From: an uncultured Syntrophaceae bacterium
GTDB taxonomy: Bacteria; Desulfobacterota; Syntrophia; Syntrophales; UBA2210
Assembly (NCBI GenBank): GCA_964540715.1
Contig: CAZINZ010000004.1
Coordinates: forward strand, 1 to 62,830
Reading direction: 5' to 3'
Length of the DNA: 62,830 nucleotides
Shown here: positions 5,548-30,712 of the stretch, one piece after another
Layout: each line of letters opens with the position of its first letter
Position numbering within the stretch: position 1 is the stretch's first letter
Made by a program: the position numbers and the translations under genes
Notes under the pieces: generated by a model
Databases searched by the model: none
What the model was told of the DNA's origin: nothing
The model's input: the letters and a program-made list of their open reading frames with translations, nothing else

Positions 5548-7257
5548 TTACAGAATCACATTCAATATTCCCCCGACTGCGAGGGACGATGTCAGCATTA
5601 TGCCGGTCGATTTCATAAAGTCTTTCAAGCCCAGCTCTCTGAACAGTACCACGACGGTGGCAATACATGGAAAAGACATGGTCAGGACAACGCTGCCTAC
5701 GACCATCTGTTTGGCCGTCATCGGGGATAATGCCAGCATTCCGAGAGCGGCATCCTTGCGGAGTAATCCTATAATAATCGCTGTAACCGACTCTTCTGGC
5801 AGGCCAAGTACACCCTTTATTACGGGAGCTGTGAAGTCGGCTATATAGTTGAATATTCCTGAGACAAAAAGTATGTTAATAACCAGCACCGCCGCCAATA
5901 TTATCGGGACGGCCTCTATTAGAAAACCGCGTGTCCTTCCCCAGAGCTTCTGTATGATCGTGCCCCATGGAGGGATGCGGTATGGGGGAATTTCGATGAG
6001 GAGTTCGGGGCTGAATCCCTTTAACAGTCGATTAAGAATTATTCCCAGGATTATCCACACGAGAAGCAACGTCGCATAAACGATTGCCACATATTGTCCG
6101 CCATACTTTCCAACCAGACCGAAAATCATTGCCTGGGCGGAAGCGCAGGGTACCGCTATCGATATCAGCGTTGCGGCTATGAACCGCTCCCTTTTGCTTT
6201 CAAGTACTCGTGTTGCCATTACGGCCGGCACATTGCATCCAAACCCCAGCAGGGATGGTATAATCGCGAAGCCGTGCAACCCGACTTTATGCATTGCGGT
6301 GTCGAGAAGTACCGCGAGACGTGGCAGGTACCCGGTGTCTTCAAGGATACCGAGGATAACATAAAAGGATATGATATATGGGAGTACCATGGCAAGGGGC
6401 ACATAAAGGCCGCTGCTCAACAGGCCAAAGGATTCAATGAAGTGGATTTCTCCGTCAAACAGTTTGCCTACTATGACATCATGCAACAAGCCGCTCTTCC
6501 CCATTAACGCGCTGAGTTTCATCAACGCTGGCAGCCACAGGAAATTGAATATGGGATCAAACAAATAGTTTATCAGGAATTCGCCTAAGAAGCGTATTAC
6601 TATAAAAGAGCCTGACAGGACTGCCGCGGCCATAAATATACCCGATACAGGCTTTACGCTTGCGTCCTCGAGACGTTCAAACCATCGGTGATGCCTGTGT
6701 GATCTCTGCTGTACCTGATTTGTTATATACCCTACGAAGGACCAGCGTTCATCGCGGTTTCTCACCGTAGAAGATGGTGATACGGCTTTGGAAATACCTG
6801 TTACAAGATCCTTTATTCCCTGACCGGTCAGACCTGATGTGGGGATAACAGGTATTCCGAGGATTTCGTTGAGTTTTTCAAGGTTGATGCTTATCCCGCG
6901 ATGTTTTGTGTCGTCCCACATATTCAGGGCGATTATCATGGGGATTTCCTTTTCCATTAACTGTAGTGTCAGGTAGAGATTTCTTTCGAGGTTTGTCGAG
7001 TCAACGACATTAATTACAATATCGCCCGTCTTGAGCATTTCAGAGGCAATTCTTTCGGCTTCACATGTGGGCTCAAGGGTATATGTTCCGGGCACATCAA
7101 TGATCTCAACCTGCCTGCCGTCTATTTTCATGAAACCGCTTGTATAGTTGACAGTAGTCCCGGGATAATTGGATGAGATAACGCGTACCCCCGTGAGCCG
7201 GGAAAAGACGACACTTTTGCCGACATTCGGATTGCCCATAAGCAGGATTTTCATCAT
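5548..7257 (-). CDS. feoB: Ferrous iron transporter B
   Basis: G1 'GNPNVGKS', G2 'NYPGTTV', G3 'DVPGTY', 'NMWD'; membrane part with 'GFGCNVPA' and 'PCASAQ' gate motifs. Confidence 0.95.
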   Translation of the reverse strand: MMKILLMGNPNVGKSVVFSRLTGVRVISSNYPGTTVNYTSGFMKIDGRQVEIIDVPGTYTLEPTCEAERIASEMLKTGDIVINVVDSTNLERNLYLTLQLMEKEIPMIIALNMWDDTKHRGISINLEKLNEILGIPVIPTSGLTGQGIKDLVTGISKAVSPSSTVRNRDERWSFVGYITNQVQQRSHRHHRWFERLEDASVKPVSGIFMAAAVLSGSFIVIRFLGEFLINYLFDPIFNFLWLPALMKLSALMGKSGLLHDVIVGKLFDGEIHFIESFGLLSSGLYVPLAMVLPYIISFYVILGILEDTGYLPRLAVLLDTAMHKVGLHGFAIIPSLLGFGCNVPAVMATRVLESKRERFIAATLISIAVPCASAQAMIFGLVGKYGGQYVAIVYATLLLVWIILGIILNRLLKGFSPELLIEIPPYRIPPWGTIIQKLWGRTRGFLIEAVPIILAAVLVINILFVSGIFNYIADFTAPVIKGVLGLPEESVTAIIIGLLRKDAALGMLALSPMTAKQMVVGSVVLTMSFPCIATVVVLFRELGLKDFMKSTGIMLTSSLAVGGILNVIL

Positions 7258-26049: not shown

Positions 26050-27522
26050 CTATTTTTTCAATCTGTTTATCGCATTCAATCCCGCCGAAAGCATTTTAAC
26101 CGCCAGAGGGCCGGATTCCTGATCCGAGCCGGTTGACAGGGGCGGCATGATACATTGCGGACCGTAAAGATCGTTCATCATTTTGGCAACTTCTTTTTTA
26201 ACAAGCGCGCGGAAAGGGACATGCGCGATCATGCCGTACATGGCCGCGTTACCGCTTGTCGCCAGTTCGGGATTACGACGTACAGCCTCCACACCTTTTT
26301 GAAGGTCTGCCAGATATTGATCTGCAATGGCGGCATGCCGCGGTGTTATCATGCAGTGCAGGGCATCAGGTCTCTGGAGACGGTCCACCAGCCAGCCCTT
26401 TTCTTCGAGCTGGTCGCCTACGGCAAAAATATTCACATCTTTATCTTCTGATGTATAGGCGAAAACACCCATGGCGGGTTTTCCCAGAATCTTGAGCCCG
26501 CCGATGGCCTCAATCCCGGCTTTGAGTTTATCGGTGGTATCCATGATGGCGCGGGCAATATTCAGATAACCGTCCATGCCGATGGCGTTCAGTGCAGCCC
26601 AAGCGGCCGCAATGGCACCGCCGGGACGGGTACCAAGAAGGGCGGGGGAAGCAAAGACTCCGCCGGGCCAGTCCGTACAGATAAAAAACTGATGCTTCAG
26701 ATAGTCAATATTGCGGTAGAGCAAAGTTGAGGCGCCCTTGGCGCTGAAGGCATACTTGTGGACGTCGGCCGAGATCGAAGTCACGCCGGGAACCCTGAAA
26801 TCAAAAGGCGGCACCTCATAACCCAACCGCTCGACAAAGGGCAGCAGAAATCCTCCCAGACAGCTGTCCACGTGAAAAGGAATCCCGCGCGAAAGTGCGA
26901 TCTCTCCCAGCTGCTCAATCGGATCGATCACCCCGTGCGGGTAGGATGGGGCTGAAGCAACTATCATGATGGTATTGCGGTTGATTTTCTTTCGCACGAC
27001 ATTTACATCGGCCCGGCAGTCGCTATCTACCGGCACATGCACCATCTTGACACCGAAATATTTCGCGGCCTTTTCCCAGGCGACATGAATAGTCTCAGGA
27101 GCGATCATTTCCGGCCGGCGCAATGGAATTACGCGTCTGGCGCTGGCCATCTCGCGGTAGGCAAGTACAGGTAACAGACAGCTTTCGGTGCCGCCTGAAG
27201 TCATGACGCCAGCTACCTGGTCGTCACCGTTCAACATCGAAGCGGTCATGCGCACCACCTCGTGTTCAAATCGCTTCAGACTGCGAAAGGCCATCGGGTT
27301 CAGGGCATTTTCACTGAAATACATACCATAGGCCTCTTTCAGAAAATCGGTATGTTCTTCACCCAGATAATACACAAGACTGAATATTTTATTATCGCGG
27401 TAGTTCACATCTTCTCCGGCAAAGCCTTGCAGCCTGTCCAGCACCTCTTTACGCGGGATGCCTTTTTCTGGGATGCTCTTCATAGTATTCTCCCTTTCTG
27501 CAGTATCTGTTTGTTTCGTCAT
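26050..27522 (-). CDS. Group II PLP-dependent enzyme, sphingosine-1-phosphate lyase (SPL/Dpl1)-like
   Basis: 'ENALNP', 'MTSGGTES', 'HVAWEKAA', 'SAPSYPHGVIDPI', 'HVDSCLGGF', PLP lysine in 'SADVHKY', 'GTRPGG'. Confidence 0.88.
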   Translation of the reverse strand: MTKQTDTAERENTMKSIPEKGIPRKEVLDRLQGFAGEDVNYRDNKIFSLVYYLGEEHTDFLKEAYGMYFSENALNPMAFRSLKRFEHEVVRMTASMLNGDDQVAGVMTSGGTESCLLPVLAYREMASARRVIPLRRPEMIAPETIHVAWEKAAKYFGVKMVHVPVDSDCRADVNVVRKKINRNTIMIVASAPSYPHGVIDPIEQLGEIALSRGIPFHVDSCLGGFLLPFVERLGYEVPPFDFRVPGVTSISADVHKYAFSAKGASTLLYRNIDYLKHQFFICTDWPGGVFASPALLGTRPGGAIAAAWAALNAIGMDGYLNIARAIMDTTDKLKAGIEAIGGLKILGKPAMGVFAYTSEDKDVNIFAVGDQLEEKGWLVDRLQRPDALHCMITPRHAAIADQYLADLQKGVEAVRRNPELATSGNAAMYGMIAHVPFRALVKKEVAKMMNDLYGPQCIMPPLSTGSDQESGPLAVKMLSAGLNAINRLKK

Positions 27523-27543
27523 TCATTGGTTCCGGCAAATCAT

Positions 27544-28701
27544 TTATCCCAGCATAGCTTTGAAGGCATACGCCAGACTGATCCCAAGGTAGTTGCCGAC
27601 GGCATAACCGATAATGCCGGTGGTAAGACCCGAAAGGATGATTTCCTTGTTTTTGAGGGCAGCGGCTACAACGGGCACAAAAGGCGGTGAACAAATGGCC
27701 GAGACCGATGTAATTATGTAGGTATCGGTGTCAATCTTCAATATCCGGCAAAAGATTCCATGCAGCAAAAGGGAGCCGAAGATACAGAAGCACACAAAAA
27801 ACATTATACTCCAGTTAATATTGATAAGATCCTTCAGATTGGCCATTGACCCCACCACCAGGCAGAAAACCAGAATGATATACATGCCTAACTGGAAGGT
27901 TTTCTCAAGATTTCTGATTTTCGGAATAAACGAGCAGGCAATGCCGCCGGTAGTGATGGTAAGGATAGCCATCGAAGTGGCATAACTTTGGGGAACGAGC
28001 CCCGCCAGCCCCATAGCCATACCCACGATCAGCAGCGATAGAAGGGTAGCGCCGCCCATAGCCAGAACCGTTCCGCGGCGGAACATTCCGGCATAGGACT
28101 GAATATCTTCGGTTTCCATTGTGCCATTAATCCCGCCGCTGTTATTGGCCACCAGGCTGAAGCGCGGCAGCCAGATATTGAAGATCCGCTGGGCAACCGA
28201 CATGCAGAAGATGAGATAGATCAGAGAGATGAAGGTATCATACGTATGTATAATGATAAAGGTGGTTGAATCCACGTTAAGGGCGGTCTTGATGGCAGCC
28301 AGATTGGGAGTACCGCCGGTATAGACACCGATGGCCATCCCGCCCAGTTTCCAGGCATCCGGGGTCTGATCGTTGATTATGGCGTAGCCGACAAAGGCAA
28401 CAGCAATGATGGTTATGGTAGCCACCAGCATGGATAAAAGCGCCTTGCCGGCAATCCGCAACCAGTGCCTGACGTTCATGGAGAATAGCAGCAGAGGCAG
28501 TGCCAGAGCCACGGCGGCTTCACTGATGCTTTCCTGTACATGGAAGACCGATTCGGGAATGATGCCGATGTTGCCGACAGTGATCCCCACGAGGTAGCAG
28601 ATGATAACAGCGCCGATCTTGTTGAAAAAATTATAGCGGAAACAGAGCCAGATTGCCAACACGGGAAACAGGATATAAAACCCTATCAGGATAACGGCCA
28701 T
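27544..28701 (-). CDS. DUF819-family multi-pass membrane protein (putative transporter)
   Basis: About 10-11 TM helices; 'GVYTGGTPNLAAI', 'SVSAICSPPFVP', 'GIIGYAVGNYLG'. Confidence 0.82.
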   Translation of the reverse strand: MAVILIGFYILFPVLAIWLCFRYNFFNKIGAVIICYLVGITVGNIGIIPESVFHVQESISEAAVALALPLLLFSMNVRHWLRIAGKALLSMLVATITIIAVAFVGYAIINDQTPDAWKLGGMAIGVYTGGTPNLAAIKTALNVDSTTFIIIHTYDTFISLIYLIFCMSVAQRIFNIWLPRFSLVANNSGGINGTMETEDIQSYAGMFRRGTVLAMGGATLLSLLIVGMAMGLAGLVPQSYATSMAILTITTGGIACSFIPKIRNLEKTFQLGMYIILVFCLVVGSMANLKDLININWSIMFFVCFCIFGSLLLHGIFCRILKIDTDTYIITSVSAICSPPFVPVVAAALKNKEIILSGLTTGIIGYAVGNYLGISLAYAFKAMLG

Positions 28702-29165
28702 TTCGCCCCCCCCTTTTTTTTGCTGAATGTATTTAATGGGAATGATTTAATAAACTCTCTTTTTCTCATTATAGCACTTCTCTGGTGAGGATGCATAGCA
28801 TTTAACATCCTATTGTGGTTTTTTCTTGATTTGTAAGACCATCCCGCTATATTTTCATGCTGTTGGAATTATTTTGGATTACTGATTCTGCCGGAATTAC
28901 AGCGAAACTGAATTTACAGTAAGGAATGTCAATCCGTTACTGAAAACTTAGGGCTCTCAAATAACATTGTATGTCGCTCCGCATTTATTCAAGGGATAAT
29001 CTTGTGGAGTGAACGATCTTTCAACAGCGGGAAATTTTGGGTTGAGTCACGGGTAATATTAATGTAGTAGAGTTGGTGTGGCAGATAGTATTCAGGGGTC
29101 AGTATTTTCGTATTGCGTTCGTTCAGGAAAACAATGCAGGATTGTTGCAAATAAAGGGGGAGAAT

Positions 29166-30029
29166 ATGACCTATTCGCACTGCACCGATCCAGATGTGAG
29201 GGTGGATGAAGATTATCTTACGCTTTCAGATGGTGTTGAGCTCAGGATGATCGATTTTGCTCCGGCCTGTGACACCCCCGGGAAACCGATGGTTGTCTTT
29301 GTTGCCGGCTGGATATCCCTTATTGATGGTTGGAAGGATGTGTTGAGGATTCTTACCCCCTGCTACAGGACGCTGTATGTGGAGACTCGGGAAAAAGTCA
29401 GTGCCAGGCTTCCGGAACGCGCCCGCGTGGATTTTTCCATGCCCCGTATGAGTCTGGATATCAGAGAAATTCTTGAGTCTAAGGTTGCTGCGGATAAGAA
29501 GTTCTGTTTTGCGGCCAGTTCTCTTGGCTCGACCGTTGTATTGGATTACCTGAGTATGGGATTGAGACAGCCGGAACAGTCATTTCTGATAGCTCCTATT
29601 TGTGAACTTCCTTATCCATTCTGGCTTCCTCTTGTATTAAGGCCGTTTCCGCCAGTGCTGTATAATATTATTAAGCCTTCTCTGAAGTGGTACCTGCGTA
29701 ATATCAGGCTGGACAAACATAAAGAGCCGGAACAGGTAAAAAAGTATGAAGGCACGCTGGATGCCGCCGAACCGAGGAGGCTCAAGTCGAATGCGTTCGC
29801 GATAAAGGACTACAGCGTCTGGGGACAACTTCCGAATGTCAGATCTCCAGCGCTGATTATCGGTGCGCAGAGCGATACCCTGCATGGCCTTGATGTTATG
29901 AATAGAATGGTTGATCTTATGCCCGACGCGGACATGGAAATGATGTCCAGTAACAGAGAAACTCACAGTGAGACGATGGGAAAACTGATCGTTGACCGCT
30001 TGGCCGGTTTCAAAAATGTGGAAAGGTGA
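29166..30029 (+). CDS. Alpha/beta hydrolase
   Basis: 'FVAGW' oxyanion loop, nucleophile elbow 'ASSLG', 'SDTLH', late His 'ETH'; GGGGAG SD before MTYSH. Confidence 0.75.
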   Translation: MTYSHCTDPDVRVDEDYLTLSDGVELRMIDFAPACDTPGKPMVVFVAGWISLIDGWKDVLRILTPCYRTLYVETREKVSARLPERARVDFSMPRMSLDIREILESKVAADKKFCFAASSLGSTVVLDYLSMGLRQPEQSFLIAPICELPYPFWLPLVLRPFPPVLYNIIKPSLKWYLRNIRLDKHKEPEQVKKYEGTLDAAEPRRLKSNAFAIKDYSVWGQLPNVRSPALIIGAQSDTLHGLDVMNRMVDLMPDADMEMMSSNRETHSETMGKLIVDRLAGFKNVER

Positions 30030-30032
30030 TGT

Positions 30033-30317
30033 ATGGCTTCAGATGTTAATGAGATTTCGATAAAATATGAGGAAGATGGTATTTTGATAGTCAATGAACT
30101 TGACAAGGTGATCCTGTCAAAGGGTGCCTGGTCGACAATTATATTCAGATATCAGGATTGGAACCGAACGAAGGGTGAATATGGACCGGAACGTTTCACT
30201 ATCCGCCGGTACCGTAAATTGAATGACGAATACCGCCAGCAGAGTAAATTTAATATTTCGAGCGCAGATCAGGCCTTAAAGATTGTAGGTGCGCTTCAGA
30301 AATGGATTGATGCGTAA
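30033..30317 (+). CDS. Hypothetical protein (94 aa)
   Basis: Clean ORF with SD, 3 bp after the hydrolase; protein-like composition ('KGAWSTIIFRYQDW', 'RRYRK', 'SKFNISS'). Confidence 0.8.
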   Translation: MASDVNEISIKYEEDGILIVNELDKVILSKGAWSTIIFRYQDWNRTKGEYGPERFTIRRYRKLNDEYRQQSKFNISSADQALKIVGALQKWIDA

Positions 30318-30364
30318 CCTGATTTGTCTTGCTTAACAAATGTAACACTCAGGAGGTTGTAATC

Positions 30365-30712
30365 GTGGGCACTCTTATCGATTATCTGTCAGCTCATCCT
30401 GTGGCGCTTATTATAACGGGCGCTGTTGTGCTTTTATTAATATACTCTTCTTTCAAGCTACTGATGAAGATGTTGTTGATAACCAGTCTCGTGTTTATCT
30501 CACTTTGTGGCTATAACTATTACAAGGCGCCTGATGAATTTCCCGGAAATGTAAGAGAAATGGCAGCCATGGTTGGAGATTATAGCGATGACATGATAGA
30601 GGCGGGAAAGGACGTCGTGGAAAAGGGAAAGAGTATGATAGATAAGGGGAGGGTACTGGTCGATAAGGTTGGAGAATCTGTTAAAAAGAAGAAAAAAGCC
30701 TTAACCGATTAG
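30365..30712 (+). CDS. Hypothetical membrane protein with basic amphipathic tail
   Basis: CAGGAGG SD before GTG 30365; two N-terminal hydrophobic segments. Confidence 0.7.
   Translation: MGTLIDYLSAHPVALIITGAVVLLLIYSSFKLLMKMLLITSLVFISLCGYNYYKAPDEFPGNVREMAAMVGDYSDDMIEAGKDVVEKGKSMIDKGRVLVDKVGESVKKKKKALTD

Follow-up and report, generated by a model that had tools for sequence, protein, structure and literature searches.

A conserved gene pair for a sphingosine-1-phosphate lyase-like enzyme and a DUF819 membrane protein in an uncultured salt-lake Syntrophaceae bacterium

Bacterial relatives of sphingosine-1-phosphate (S1P) lyase (SPL; EC 4.1.2.27) are usually read as sphingolipid enzymes or as host-targeting effectors. 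The closest described systems are the soluble bacterial lyase of Symbiobacterium thermophilum (StSPL; 3MAD/3MAU) and human SGPL1 (4Q6R). In StSPL, the phosphate of the substrate is bound by His129 and Ser353 (adjacent protomer), and Tyr105, Asn126 and Lys317 are substrate residues (PMC10243590). Here we describe a two-gene unit in a 62,830-nucleotide stretch of DNA (the window), which is contig C4 of a 2.5-Mb metagenome-assembled genome (MAG; 97% complete) of an uncultured Syntrophaceae bacterium. The unit encodes an S1P-lyase-like enzyme and a membrane protein of the DUF819 family, and represents a well-defined, widespread and uncharacterized SPL-like subfamily with DUF819 as its partner gene. 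We propose, with a probability of about 0.5, that the unit imports an anionic 2-amino-3-hydroxy compound other than S1P and then cleaves one of its C-C bonds; we infer the direction of transport, the retro-aldol chemistry (rather than decarboxylation) and the substrate.

Conserved pairing of the enzyme and DUF819 genes

The initial annotation of the window described a two-gene unit on the minus strand, and both open reading frames (ORFs) are present there, at 27544-28701(-) and 26050-27522(-). We compared this arrangement with 30 genome loci (relatives 50-93% identical) and with a larger set of 111 loci that includes metagenome contigs and has enough upstream DNA in 101 cases; the loci are not independent samples, and neighboring genes are named throughout from Pfam, NCBIfam or PDB matches. 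A DUF819 gene lies directly upstream of the enzyme gene, on the same strand, in 21 of the 30 genome loci and in 65 of the 101, and nearby in six more. The linked loci with both genes full-length (54, in 16 groups at at least 70% enzyme identity) come from Thermodesulfobacteriota, Bacillota (Acutalibacteraceae), Spirochaetota (Spirochaetaceae) and Leptospirales (Turneriella), MAGs included. Pairwise divergences of the enzyme and of DUF819 correlate (Mantel r 0.89, a value reached in 0 of 999 permutations), which indicates that the two genes have largely traveled together. No third gene was found to be conserved throughout the pair loci. The enzyme and DUF819 genes thus form a conserved functional unit, beyond chance adjacency, and the initial concern that the pairing might not be conserved was not borne out. 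The unit and its leader comprise the following features:

28702..29072, minus strand: 5' region of the unit, common to the divergent gene, with a ribosome-binding site and promoter consensus matches
27544..28701, minus strand: first gene of the unit, DUF819 (PF05684) polytopic membrane protein, 385 aa (Pfam)
27484..27543, minus strand: intergenic spacer with the ribosome-binding site GAAAGGGAG (27498-27490), as read in the sequence
26050..27483, minus strand: S1P-lyase-like group II pyridoxal 5'-phosphate (PLP) enzyme, 477 aa from the likely start at Met14 (longest ORF 26050-27522, 490 aa)

The gap of 21 bp first reported between the two genes holds for the longest enzyme ORF only. The ribosome-binding site in the spacer is a strong one, 6 nt ahead of ATG 27483 (Met14 of that ORF), and the enzyme homologues in the database are 477 aa long and begin at the equivalent Met. 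We therefore place the start at Met14; the coding sequence then probably spans 26050-27483 and lies 60 nt from the DUF819 gene. No terminator-like site was seen between the DUF819 and enzyme genes. In the leader (28702-29072), a G-rich ribosome-binding site precedes the DUF819 ATG at 28701, an extended -10-like element (TGCTATAAT) lies ~70 nt upstream, and a promoter-like site spans 29024-28996; the promoter elements are consensus matches only. A riboswitch or other known RNA was rejected as a leader element, as an Rfam search of the region with E values up to 1 returned one chance-level match and nothing credible.

The DUF819 assignment of the first gene was confirmed by a full-length match to PF05684 above the gathering score (E 1.3e-41; 143.4 bits versus a cut-off of 27; profile positions 9-379 of 379). 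The AlphaFold model of the protein is all-helical (pLDDT 87.7), with a disordered loop at residues 185-195, and its best matches among solved folds are CitS Na+/citrate symporters (5A1S, 5XAT and 9LSK) in several states (TM 0.56-0.61; Foldseek E 3e-5), followed by Na+/H+ antiporters. Consistent with this, the nearest neighbors in a protein language-model (Atlas) search are DUF819 and 2-hydroxycarboxylate transporter (2HCT) clusters; Pfam reports DUF819 alone for the window protein, and not 2HCT. The likeness to the CitS/2HCT family is one of fold over the whole length of DUF819, whereas identity is only 14-17% and DUF819 is without a characterized member. DUF819 proteins are present from bacteria to plant chloroplasts, and the literature that mentions them assigns no function. 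The model suggests an elevator-type secondary carrier of the CitS (small-anion) fold, presumably an importer. Because the superfamily of the CitS fold also has bile-acid carriers, an amphiphilic anion is possible as the cargo of DUF819.

Several related loci show variations of the pair. The DUF819 gene is absent from L029 and L080 (Candidatus Desulfobacula maris), where ~360 nt are left (~5656-6013) in an otherwise syntenic locus (Usp, small ORF, enzyme), as if the transporter had been cleanly lost. The metX/metY/metW/nadA block upstream in Desulfobacula was considered as well and dismissed as housekeeping synteny only. Acutalibacteraceae from gut and rumen (L033-L038; e.g., L033:4600-5997) have DUF819 proteins of ~465 aa, in which ~80 additional residues follow the first helices, and L116 carries two tandem DUF819 genes ahead of the enzyme gene. 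In another lineage, a protein with a signal peptide and the look of an outer-membrane barrel shares an operon with DUF819, divergent from the enzyme gene.

The enzyme clade and its head-group pocket

The 490-aa ORF has the motifs HVDSCLGGF (217-225), SADVHKY (251-257) and GTRPGG (297-302), as initially reported. The second motif holds the Schiff-base lysine of the group II PLP fold (S-A-D-x-H-K-Y/F), Lys256, which aligns with StSPL Lys311. The enzyme is soluble, without an N-terminal anchor, and has many relatives: of the 8,000 candidates that a word-indexed search scored, more than 7,800 cleared the E threshold of 0.001. Solved S1P lyases match it at ~50% identity (StSPL 3MAD, E 4e-125; human SGPL1, 1e-113; Burkholderia, 2.5e-102; yeast Dpl1p, 5e-96). 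The Pfam family Pyridoxal_deC also matches (E 2e-23), and decarboxylases match far worse than the lyases (MfnA, 6e-33; GAD, 2e-25). Furthermore, the enzyme misses the equivalog cut-offs of both MfnA (TIGR03812; 252.5 versus 299.4 bits) and GAD (TIGR01788; 139.6 versus 380.4 bits). By these scores it belongs to the S1P-lyase superfamily and not to the GAD/MfnA decarboxylases, contrary to the initial caution that it might cluster as a plain amino-acid decarboxylase.

The family scores bear on an alternative in which an amino-acid decarboxylase works with a precursor/product exchanger. DUF819 would then swap an anionic amino acid (e.g., cysteate or aspartate) for its amine (taurine or β-alanine), giving an energy-limited anaerobe proton-motive force or pH relief. 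The pair is a self-contained two-gene module in variable surroundings, which is the typical decarboxylase-antiporter layout; GadB/GadC, AspD/AspT and MleS/MleP likewise combine genes for a transporter and a PLP or decarboxylating enzyme in a small operon. Exchangers of this kind, for the precursors and products of decarboxylation pathways, are found in the 2HCT family of CitS, whose fold DUF819 shares. The enzyme family is group II decarboxylase-like, with MfnA as the nearest non-lyase relative, and the column of Asn75 aligns with a GadB residue that we take to bind the distal carboxylate in GadB structures. However, the missed MfnA and GAD cut-offs set the enzyme apart from those systems, as does its retention of lyase-specific residues (Lys262, Tyr51 and the tyrosine of the C-terminal YGM) that are absent from the GadB-type enzyme of this genome, in which the Lys262 column is Leu. 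Exchange by DUF819 is, moreover, putative, the acylase, acyl-CoA ligase and aldehyde dehydrogenase genes found beside relatives would make no sense next to a decarboxylase, and a GadB-type enzyme is already encoded at another site in the genome. We therefore consider a decarboxylase-exchanger pair rather improbable. The separate GadB-type glutamate decarboxylase is encoded on contig C7:56642-57721 (L002:1459-2850, minus strand; E 6e-190 to E. coli GadB), which argues that the SPL-like gene is not the glutamate decarboxylase of this organism.

The relationship to true S1P lyases was resolved with a FastTree phylogeny of 241 rows (139 representatives from an exhaustive profile-free search plus the locus proteins) with Shimodaira-Hasegawa-like local support and a midpoint root. 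The window enzyme is placed in a bacterial clade with 99% support, whose 102 rows all read N[AG]LNP / LVY / GTR. Rows with the NPLH / GSR signature, which StSPL and human SGPL1 carry, make up most of the other half of the tree and include StSPL-like and eukaryote-like sequences and a bacterial cluster of Chloroflexota type. Thus, the phylogeny does not group the enzyme with the characterized lyases, as membership in the SPL/Dpl1 branch (the initial assignment) had implied, and instead suggests that it is a member of a separate, large clade that contains bacterial sequences alone and is sister to the true S1P lyases.

A eukaryote-like clade with a long N-terminus also reads NALNP rather than NPLHP, and one of its members (P0253 region of the tree) is from the dictyostelid Synstelium. 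The change from His to Asn thus extends beyond bacteria, and this clade may stand for a second substrate class in amoebae too.

We compared alignment columns between 96 distinct sequences of the window's clade and 59 canonical-type representatives. Near-invariant in both are 43 positions, including the PLP lysine, Asp219, His146, Gly111/Thr112 and every cofactor ligand; the SPL-specific Tyr51 (Y105 in StSPL), Asn72 (N126), Lys262 (K317) and Tyr429 (C-terminal YGM) are among the 43 too. These residues and His255 are conserved with StSPL, and an alignment of 14 clade members shows no variation at Tyr51, Asn72 or Lys262. The likeness to StSPL and SGPL1 thus extends from the fold to the PLP lysine motif, the Asp, the His stacking residue, the counterparts of Tyr105, Asn126 and Lys317, and the YGM tyrosine; the window enzyme, also a soluble bacterial form, starts ~55 residues later than StSPL. 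The differences are concentrated elsewhere. Eight positions are fixed differently between the clades, and four of them lie in elements that contact phosphate or phosphoethanolamine in StSPL. The fixed pocket changes are Ser48 for Gly102 (adjacent to Tyr105), Asn75 for His129, Thr298 for Ser353 and Phe290 for Tyr345, and Leu49, likewise fixed in the clade, stands in place of StSPL Ala103. Asn75 and Thr298 occur in 100% of the 96 clade sequences, as do His and Ser in 100% of the 59 canonical-type representatives.

The window enzyme therefore lacks the phosphate-binding pair His129/Ser353 of a canonical S1P lyase, and alignment does not support the phosphate-binding site implied by the initial annotation, since His129 is invariantly Asn with co-varying changes in the neighboring pocket. 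The His129 column reads Asp in this genome's GadB-type decarboxylase and Tyr or Asp in other SPL-like clades, and behaves as the specificity position of the whole superfamily. Because the C1 head-group pocket is rebuilt while the catalytic apparatus is kept, the head group is probably not a phosphate ester; on our reading of the alignment, the bond-breaking chemistry was kept and the head group changed. Such a pocket is found across a large, mostly environmental and anaerobic clade in which about two-thirds of the loci have DUF819 directly upstream.

The rebuilt pocket counts against a genuine sphingosine/sphinganine-1-phosphate lyase, for which DUF819 would take up or flip a phosphorylated long-chain base and the enzyme would release phosphoethanolamine and a fatty aldehyde for β-oxidation. 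The ~50% identity to solved S1P lyases, which are the best matches, supports such a function, as does the retention of all catalytic residues and of three of the five head-group ligands. Yet the phosphate ligand His129 is invariantly Asn, S353T, Y345F and G102S co-vary with it, the clade is separate from the characterized lyases, and a CitS-like carrier would be an unusual route for a C18 phospholipid-like molecule. Kinase genes point the same way. No FGGY homologue occurs in the 111 loci of the window's clade, and an FGGY kinase gene ends 15 nt upstream of the lyase gene in the single canonical-type (NPLHP/GSR) bacterial locus read (L126:1920-4969). That locus is also a two-gene unit around an SPL-family enzyme, and its kinase could make the phosphate ester; the window, in contrast, has a transporter partner, an altered pocket and no FGGY kinase nearby. 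This makes a phosphorylated substrate doubtful, and one that needs prior phosphorylation unlikely unless it arrives phosphorylated. Taken together, we regard a true S1P lyase as unlikely. The uptake-and-cleave module initially proposed for a phosphorylated long-chain amino alcohol is thus retained in part: uptake and cleavage are likely, but a phosphorylated sphingoid is doubtful, given the Asn at the His129 position and the missing kinase.

Neighboring genes in related loci and candidate substrates

In 8 loci, a class-III aminotransferase gene is directly or nearly downstream of the enzyme gene, and 3 of these have an alanine dehydrogenase gene after it and a GntR/HutC regulator before. By analogy, genes for omega-transamination with pyruvate are arranged in this way, with aminotransferase plus alanine dehydrogenase, in taurine catabolism, for instance, which uses taurine:pyruvate aminotransferase (Tpa), Ald and sulfoacetaldehyde acetyltransferase (Xsc). 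The resemblance to that pathway extends to Xsc in two loci. L031 has a true Xsc (TIGR03457; 833 bits versus a cut-off of 676) 3.6 kb from the enzyme-aminotransferase pair, and L089 has an 85%-identical Xsc beside the enzyme, the enzymes of the two loci being just 58% identical. In both loci, a shared 399-aa gene (cluster c75) comes before the Xsc gene (L031:11010-12749, which is G041:C7:618323-620020; L089:6111-7856), which is convergent with the SPL-like gene. A sulfatase gene and one of the TauE family flank the gene of a sister-clade member. The likeness to taurine catabolism has its limits: the neighboring aminotransferases reach generic NCBIfam subfamilies only, and we know of no taurine pathway that starts with an SPL-like enzyme. 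The class-III aminotransferase fold includes phosphoethanolamine phospho-lyase, and the aminotransferases beside an S1P lyase could be phospho-lyases; the adjoining alanine dehydrogenase, however, argues for true transamination. The same taurine-handling neighbors (aminotransferase, alanine dehydrogenase and Xsc) would fit cysteate decarboxylation equally well.

Other loci point to lipid-derived substrates. Penicillin-amidase-family and/or C45 Ntn acylases are encoded in ~12 loci. In a marine lineage (7 loci), a gene for a FadD11-like acyl-CoA ligase is the next one downstream, and 6 of the 7 also have an aldehyde dehydrogenase a few genes on. A 3-hydroxyacyl-CoA dehydrogenase is found beside clade members too. 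Neighbors of these kinds would suit an S1P lyase, and the fatty-aldehyde release first suggested for the unit fits the N-acyl amidases, the FadD-like ligase and the aldehyde dehydrogenase of some related loci, but no such follow-up is encoded next to the pair here. TetR or GntR regulators accompany the enzyme in ~18 loci. Neighbors confined to single lineages are a threonine aldolase of LtaE/GntG type, ATP-grasp and GNAT proteins, and methylamine methyltransferases.

These neighborhoods also speak to a biosynthetic role, in which the enzyme would make a small amine or amino-alcohol (a compatible solute or a lipid head group) for export by DUF819. The salt-lake habitat is consistent with such a role, as are the universal stress protein, MscS channel, ATP-grasp ligase and GNAT acetyltransferases of some loci, which recall osmolyte pathways. 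However, the TetR and GntR/HutC regulators, the omega-aminotransferase with alanine dehydrogenase, the acylases and the acyl-CoA ligase are catabolic signatures, and the transporter-first gene order and patchy distribution in the genus suit an accessory nutrient trait. We find a biosynthetic pair very unlikely.

The combination of a catabolic regulator, an importer, an SPL-type enzyme and either omega-transamination or acylase, ligase and aldehyde dehydrogenase steps suggests retro-aldol cleavage of an imported compound. In the mechanism that we propose, DUF819 would bring an anionic 2-amino-3-hydroxy compound into the cell, either free or released from an N-acyl lipid, depending on the lineage. 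In the cytoplasm, the substrate amine would displace Lys256 from its Schiff base with PLP, and the enzyme would cleave between C2 and C3 through retro-aldol chemistry of the S1P-lyase type to yield an aldehyde and a 2-aminoethyl-X fragment.

A sulfonate would be our first candidate for the head group, and would account for the absence of the cationic His129 and of a kinase as well as for the taurine-type follow-up enzymes and the two Xsc loci. More tentatively, then, the substrate could be a sulfonated amino-alcohol (cysteinolate or a capnine-type long-chain base) that is cleaved to taurine and an aldehyde, with DUF819 as its dedicated importer, although we hold this specific version to be rather improbable. 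The taurine would be processed in related genomes by the omega-aminotransferase and alanine dehydrogenase and sometimes by Xsc. Cysteinolate (2-amino-3-hydroxypropane-1-sulfonate) is a major algal osmolyte, and capnine is the base of Bacteroidota sulfonolipids. The only described anaerobic route of cysteinolate breakdown uses other enzymes (PMC12814064). A literature search for SPL-family enzymes acting on capnine or cysteinolate found none.

Several observations weigh against the import and cleavage of a compound other than S1P, or against its sulfonate version. Asn can bind phosphate, and the retention of Lys262, Tyr51 and Asn72 leaves a phosphate ester possible; furthermore, the substrate of the NALNP-reading eukaryote-like clade could be S1P. 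The monomer model of the enzyme is poor at active-site and dimer-interface loops (pLDDT <50 at 39-57, 70-78 and 273-300), and the pocket is for this reason not readable from it. One relative has a secreted glycerophosphodiesterase adjoining the enzyme, which points to phosphate lipids and would favor an S1P lyase. The exchangers in the CitS family, in turn, fit a decarboxylase. About 30% of the loci are without DUF819, and genome G041 has none at all, so the carrier is dispensable or replaceable. In the window, no follow-up enzyme adjoins the pair. For the sulfonate link, the evidence consists of two Xsc loci and one TauE locus. In a further departure from taurine catabolism, no gene of this genome scores above the Xsc cut-off, and no isethionate lyase could be identified in it.

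A sulfonate substrate would make the unit a missing link in how the sulfur and carbon of algal osmolytes or sulfonolipids are cycled in guts and in anoxic saline waters. It would also constitute a new kind of C-C lyase, an unrecognized anaerobic route into the taurine/sulfite pathway and the first function for DUF819. If the substrate is S1P, non-sphingolipid bacteria would be seen to feed on sphingoid bases without a kinase. Either outcome would give DUF819 its first substrate class.

Genome setting and flanking genes

The stretch was found in ~20 salt-lake metagenome runs, which identifies the habitat as a salt lake. The unit had been described as richer in GC than its neighbors, and it is, but mildly: the enzyme gene (GC 0.529) is at the 89th percentile of this genome's ORFs of at least 200 aa, and the DUF819 gene is at the 70th percentile for GC (0.504) and the 97th for GC3 (0.644) among the ORFs of the same genome. 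Both genes are thus on the high side for GC and GC3 but inside the normal range of the genome, and neither is a composition outlier; recent horizontal transfer is therefore not supported by base composition. The patchy distribution noted initially is evident within the genus, where 3 of 14 genomes carry the enzyme. Relatives with 92-93% identical enzymes still differ in flanking genes. DUF819 is encoded by a single gene in this genome, as judged from a whole-genome profile search.

The window neighbors are unrelated to the pair by annotation and comprise a convergent lipoamide-dehydrogenase-like gene, pyrD-type genes and a divergent alpha/beta hydrolase gene. The hydrolase belongs to a run of three co-oriented genes (29166-30712, plus strand) that diverges from the unit and encodes a 287-aa alpha/beta hydrolase (inner start) and proteins of 94 and 127 aa; neither of the two small ORFs had a family match. 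The ORF from 29166 looks like an alpha/beta hydrolase by its Atlas score (1.00), and Pfam matches it only with E 0.011. None of the three genes is kept beside the enzyme-DUF819 pair in the closest relatives. We therefore rejected the hydrolase as a partner of the pair, and with it the suggestion that it supplies the substrate.

We also identified a gene cassette for a TetR regulator, a Zn-dependent dehydrogenase, a DASS transporter, a thiamine pyrophosphate (TPP) enzyme resembling benzaldehyde lyase and 2-hydroxyacyl-CoA lyase, and a short-chain dehydrogenase/reductase (SDR), with a divergent gene of the bile-acid:Na+ symporter family (SBF). It is present in this genome at C11:20103-27121 (L140) and beside the pair in distant loci (L015:7597-9926, L051:10902-16259 and L089:1591-6090). 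The cassette was rejected as an obligate partner, as it occurs in 9 of 13 other genus genomes with or without the pair, and G012 has the pair without the cassette. The second TPP gene of L051 was likewise rejected as an Xsc, to which it is only 28% identical.

EutB was not found in this genome. Eight glycyl-radical enzymes are encoded, among them four tandem paralogues at C53:1696-12606 (L136) and others at C2:354-5785, C1:92321-94717 and C12:6146-8713. All eight are of the PFL2/glycerol-dehydratase class and none reaches any NCBIfam equivalog cut-off; their nearest model is the sulfopropanediol dehydratase HpsG, at ~530-565 bits versus a cut-off of 1000.

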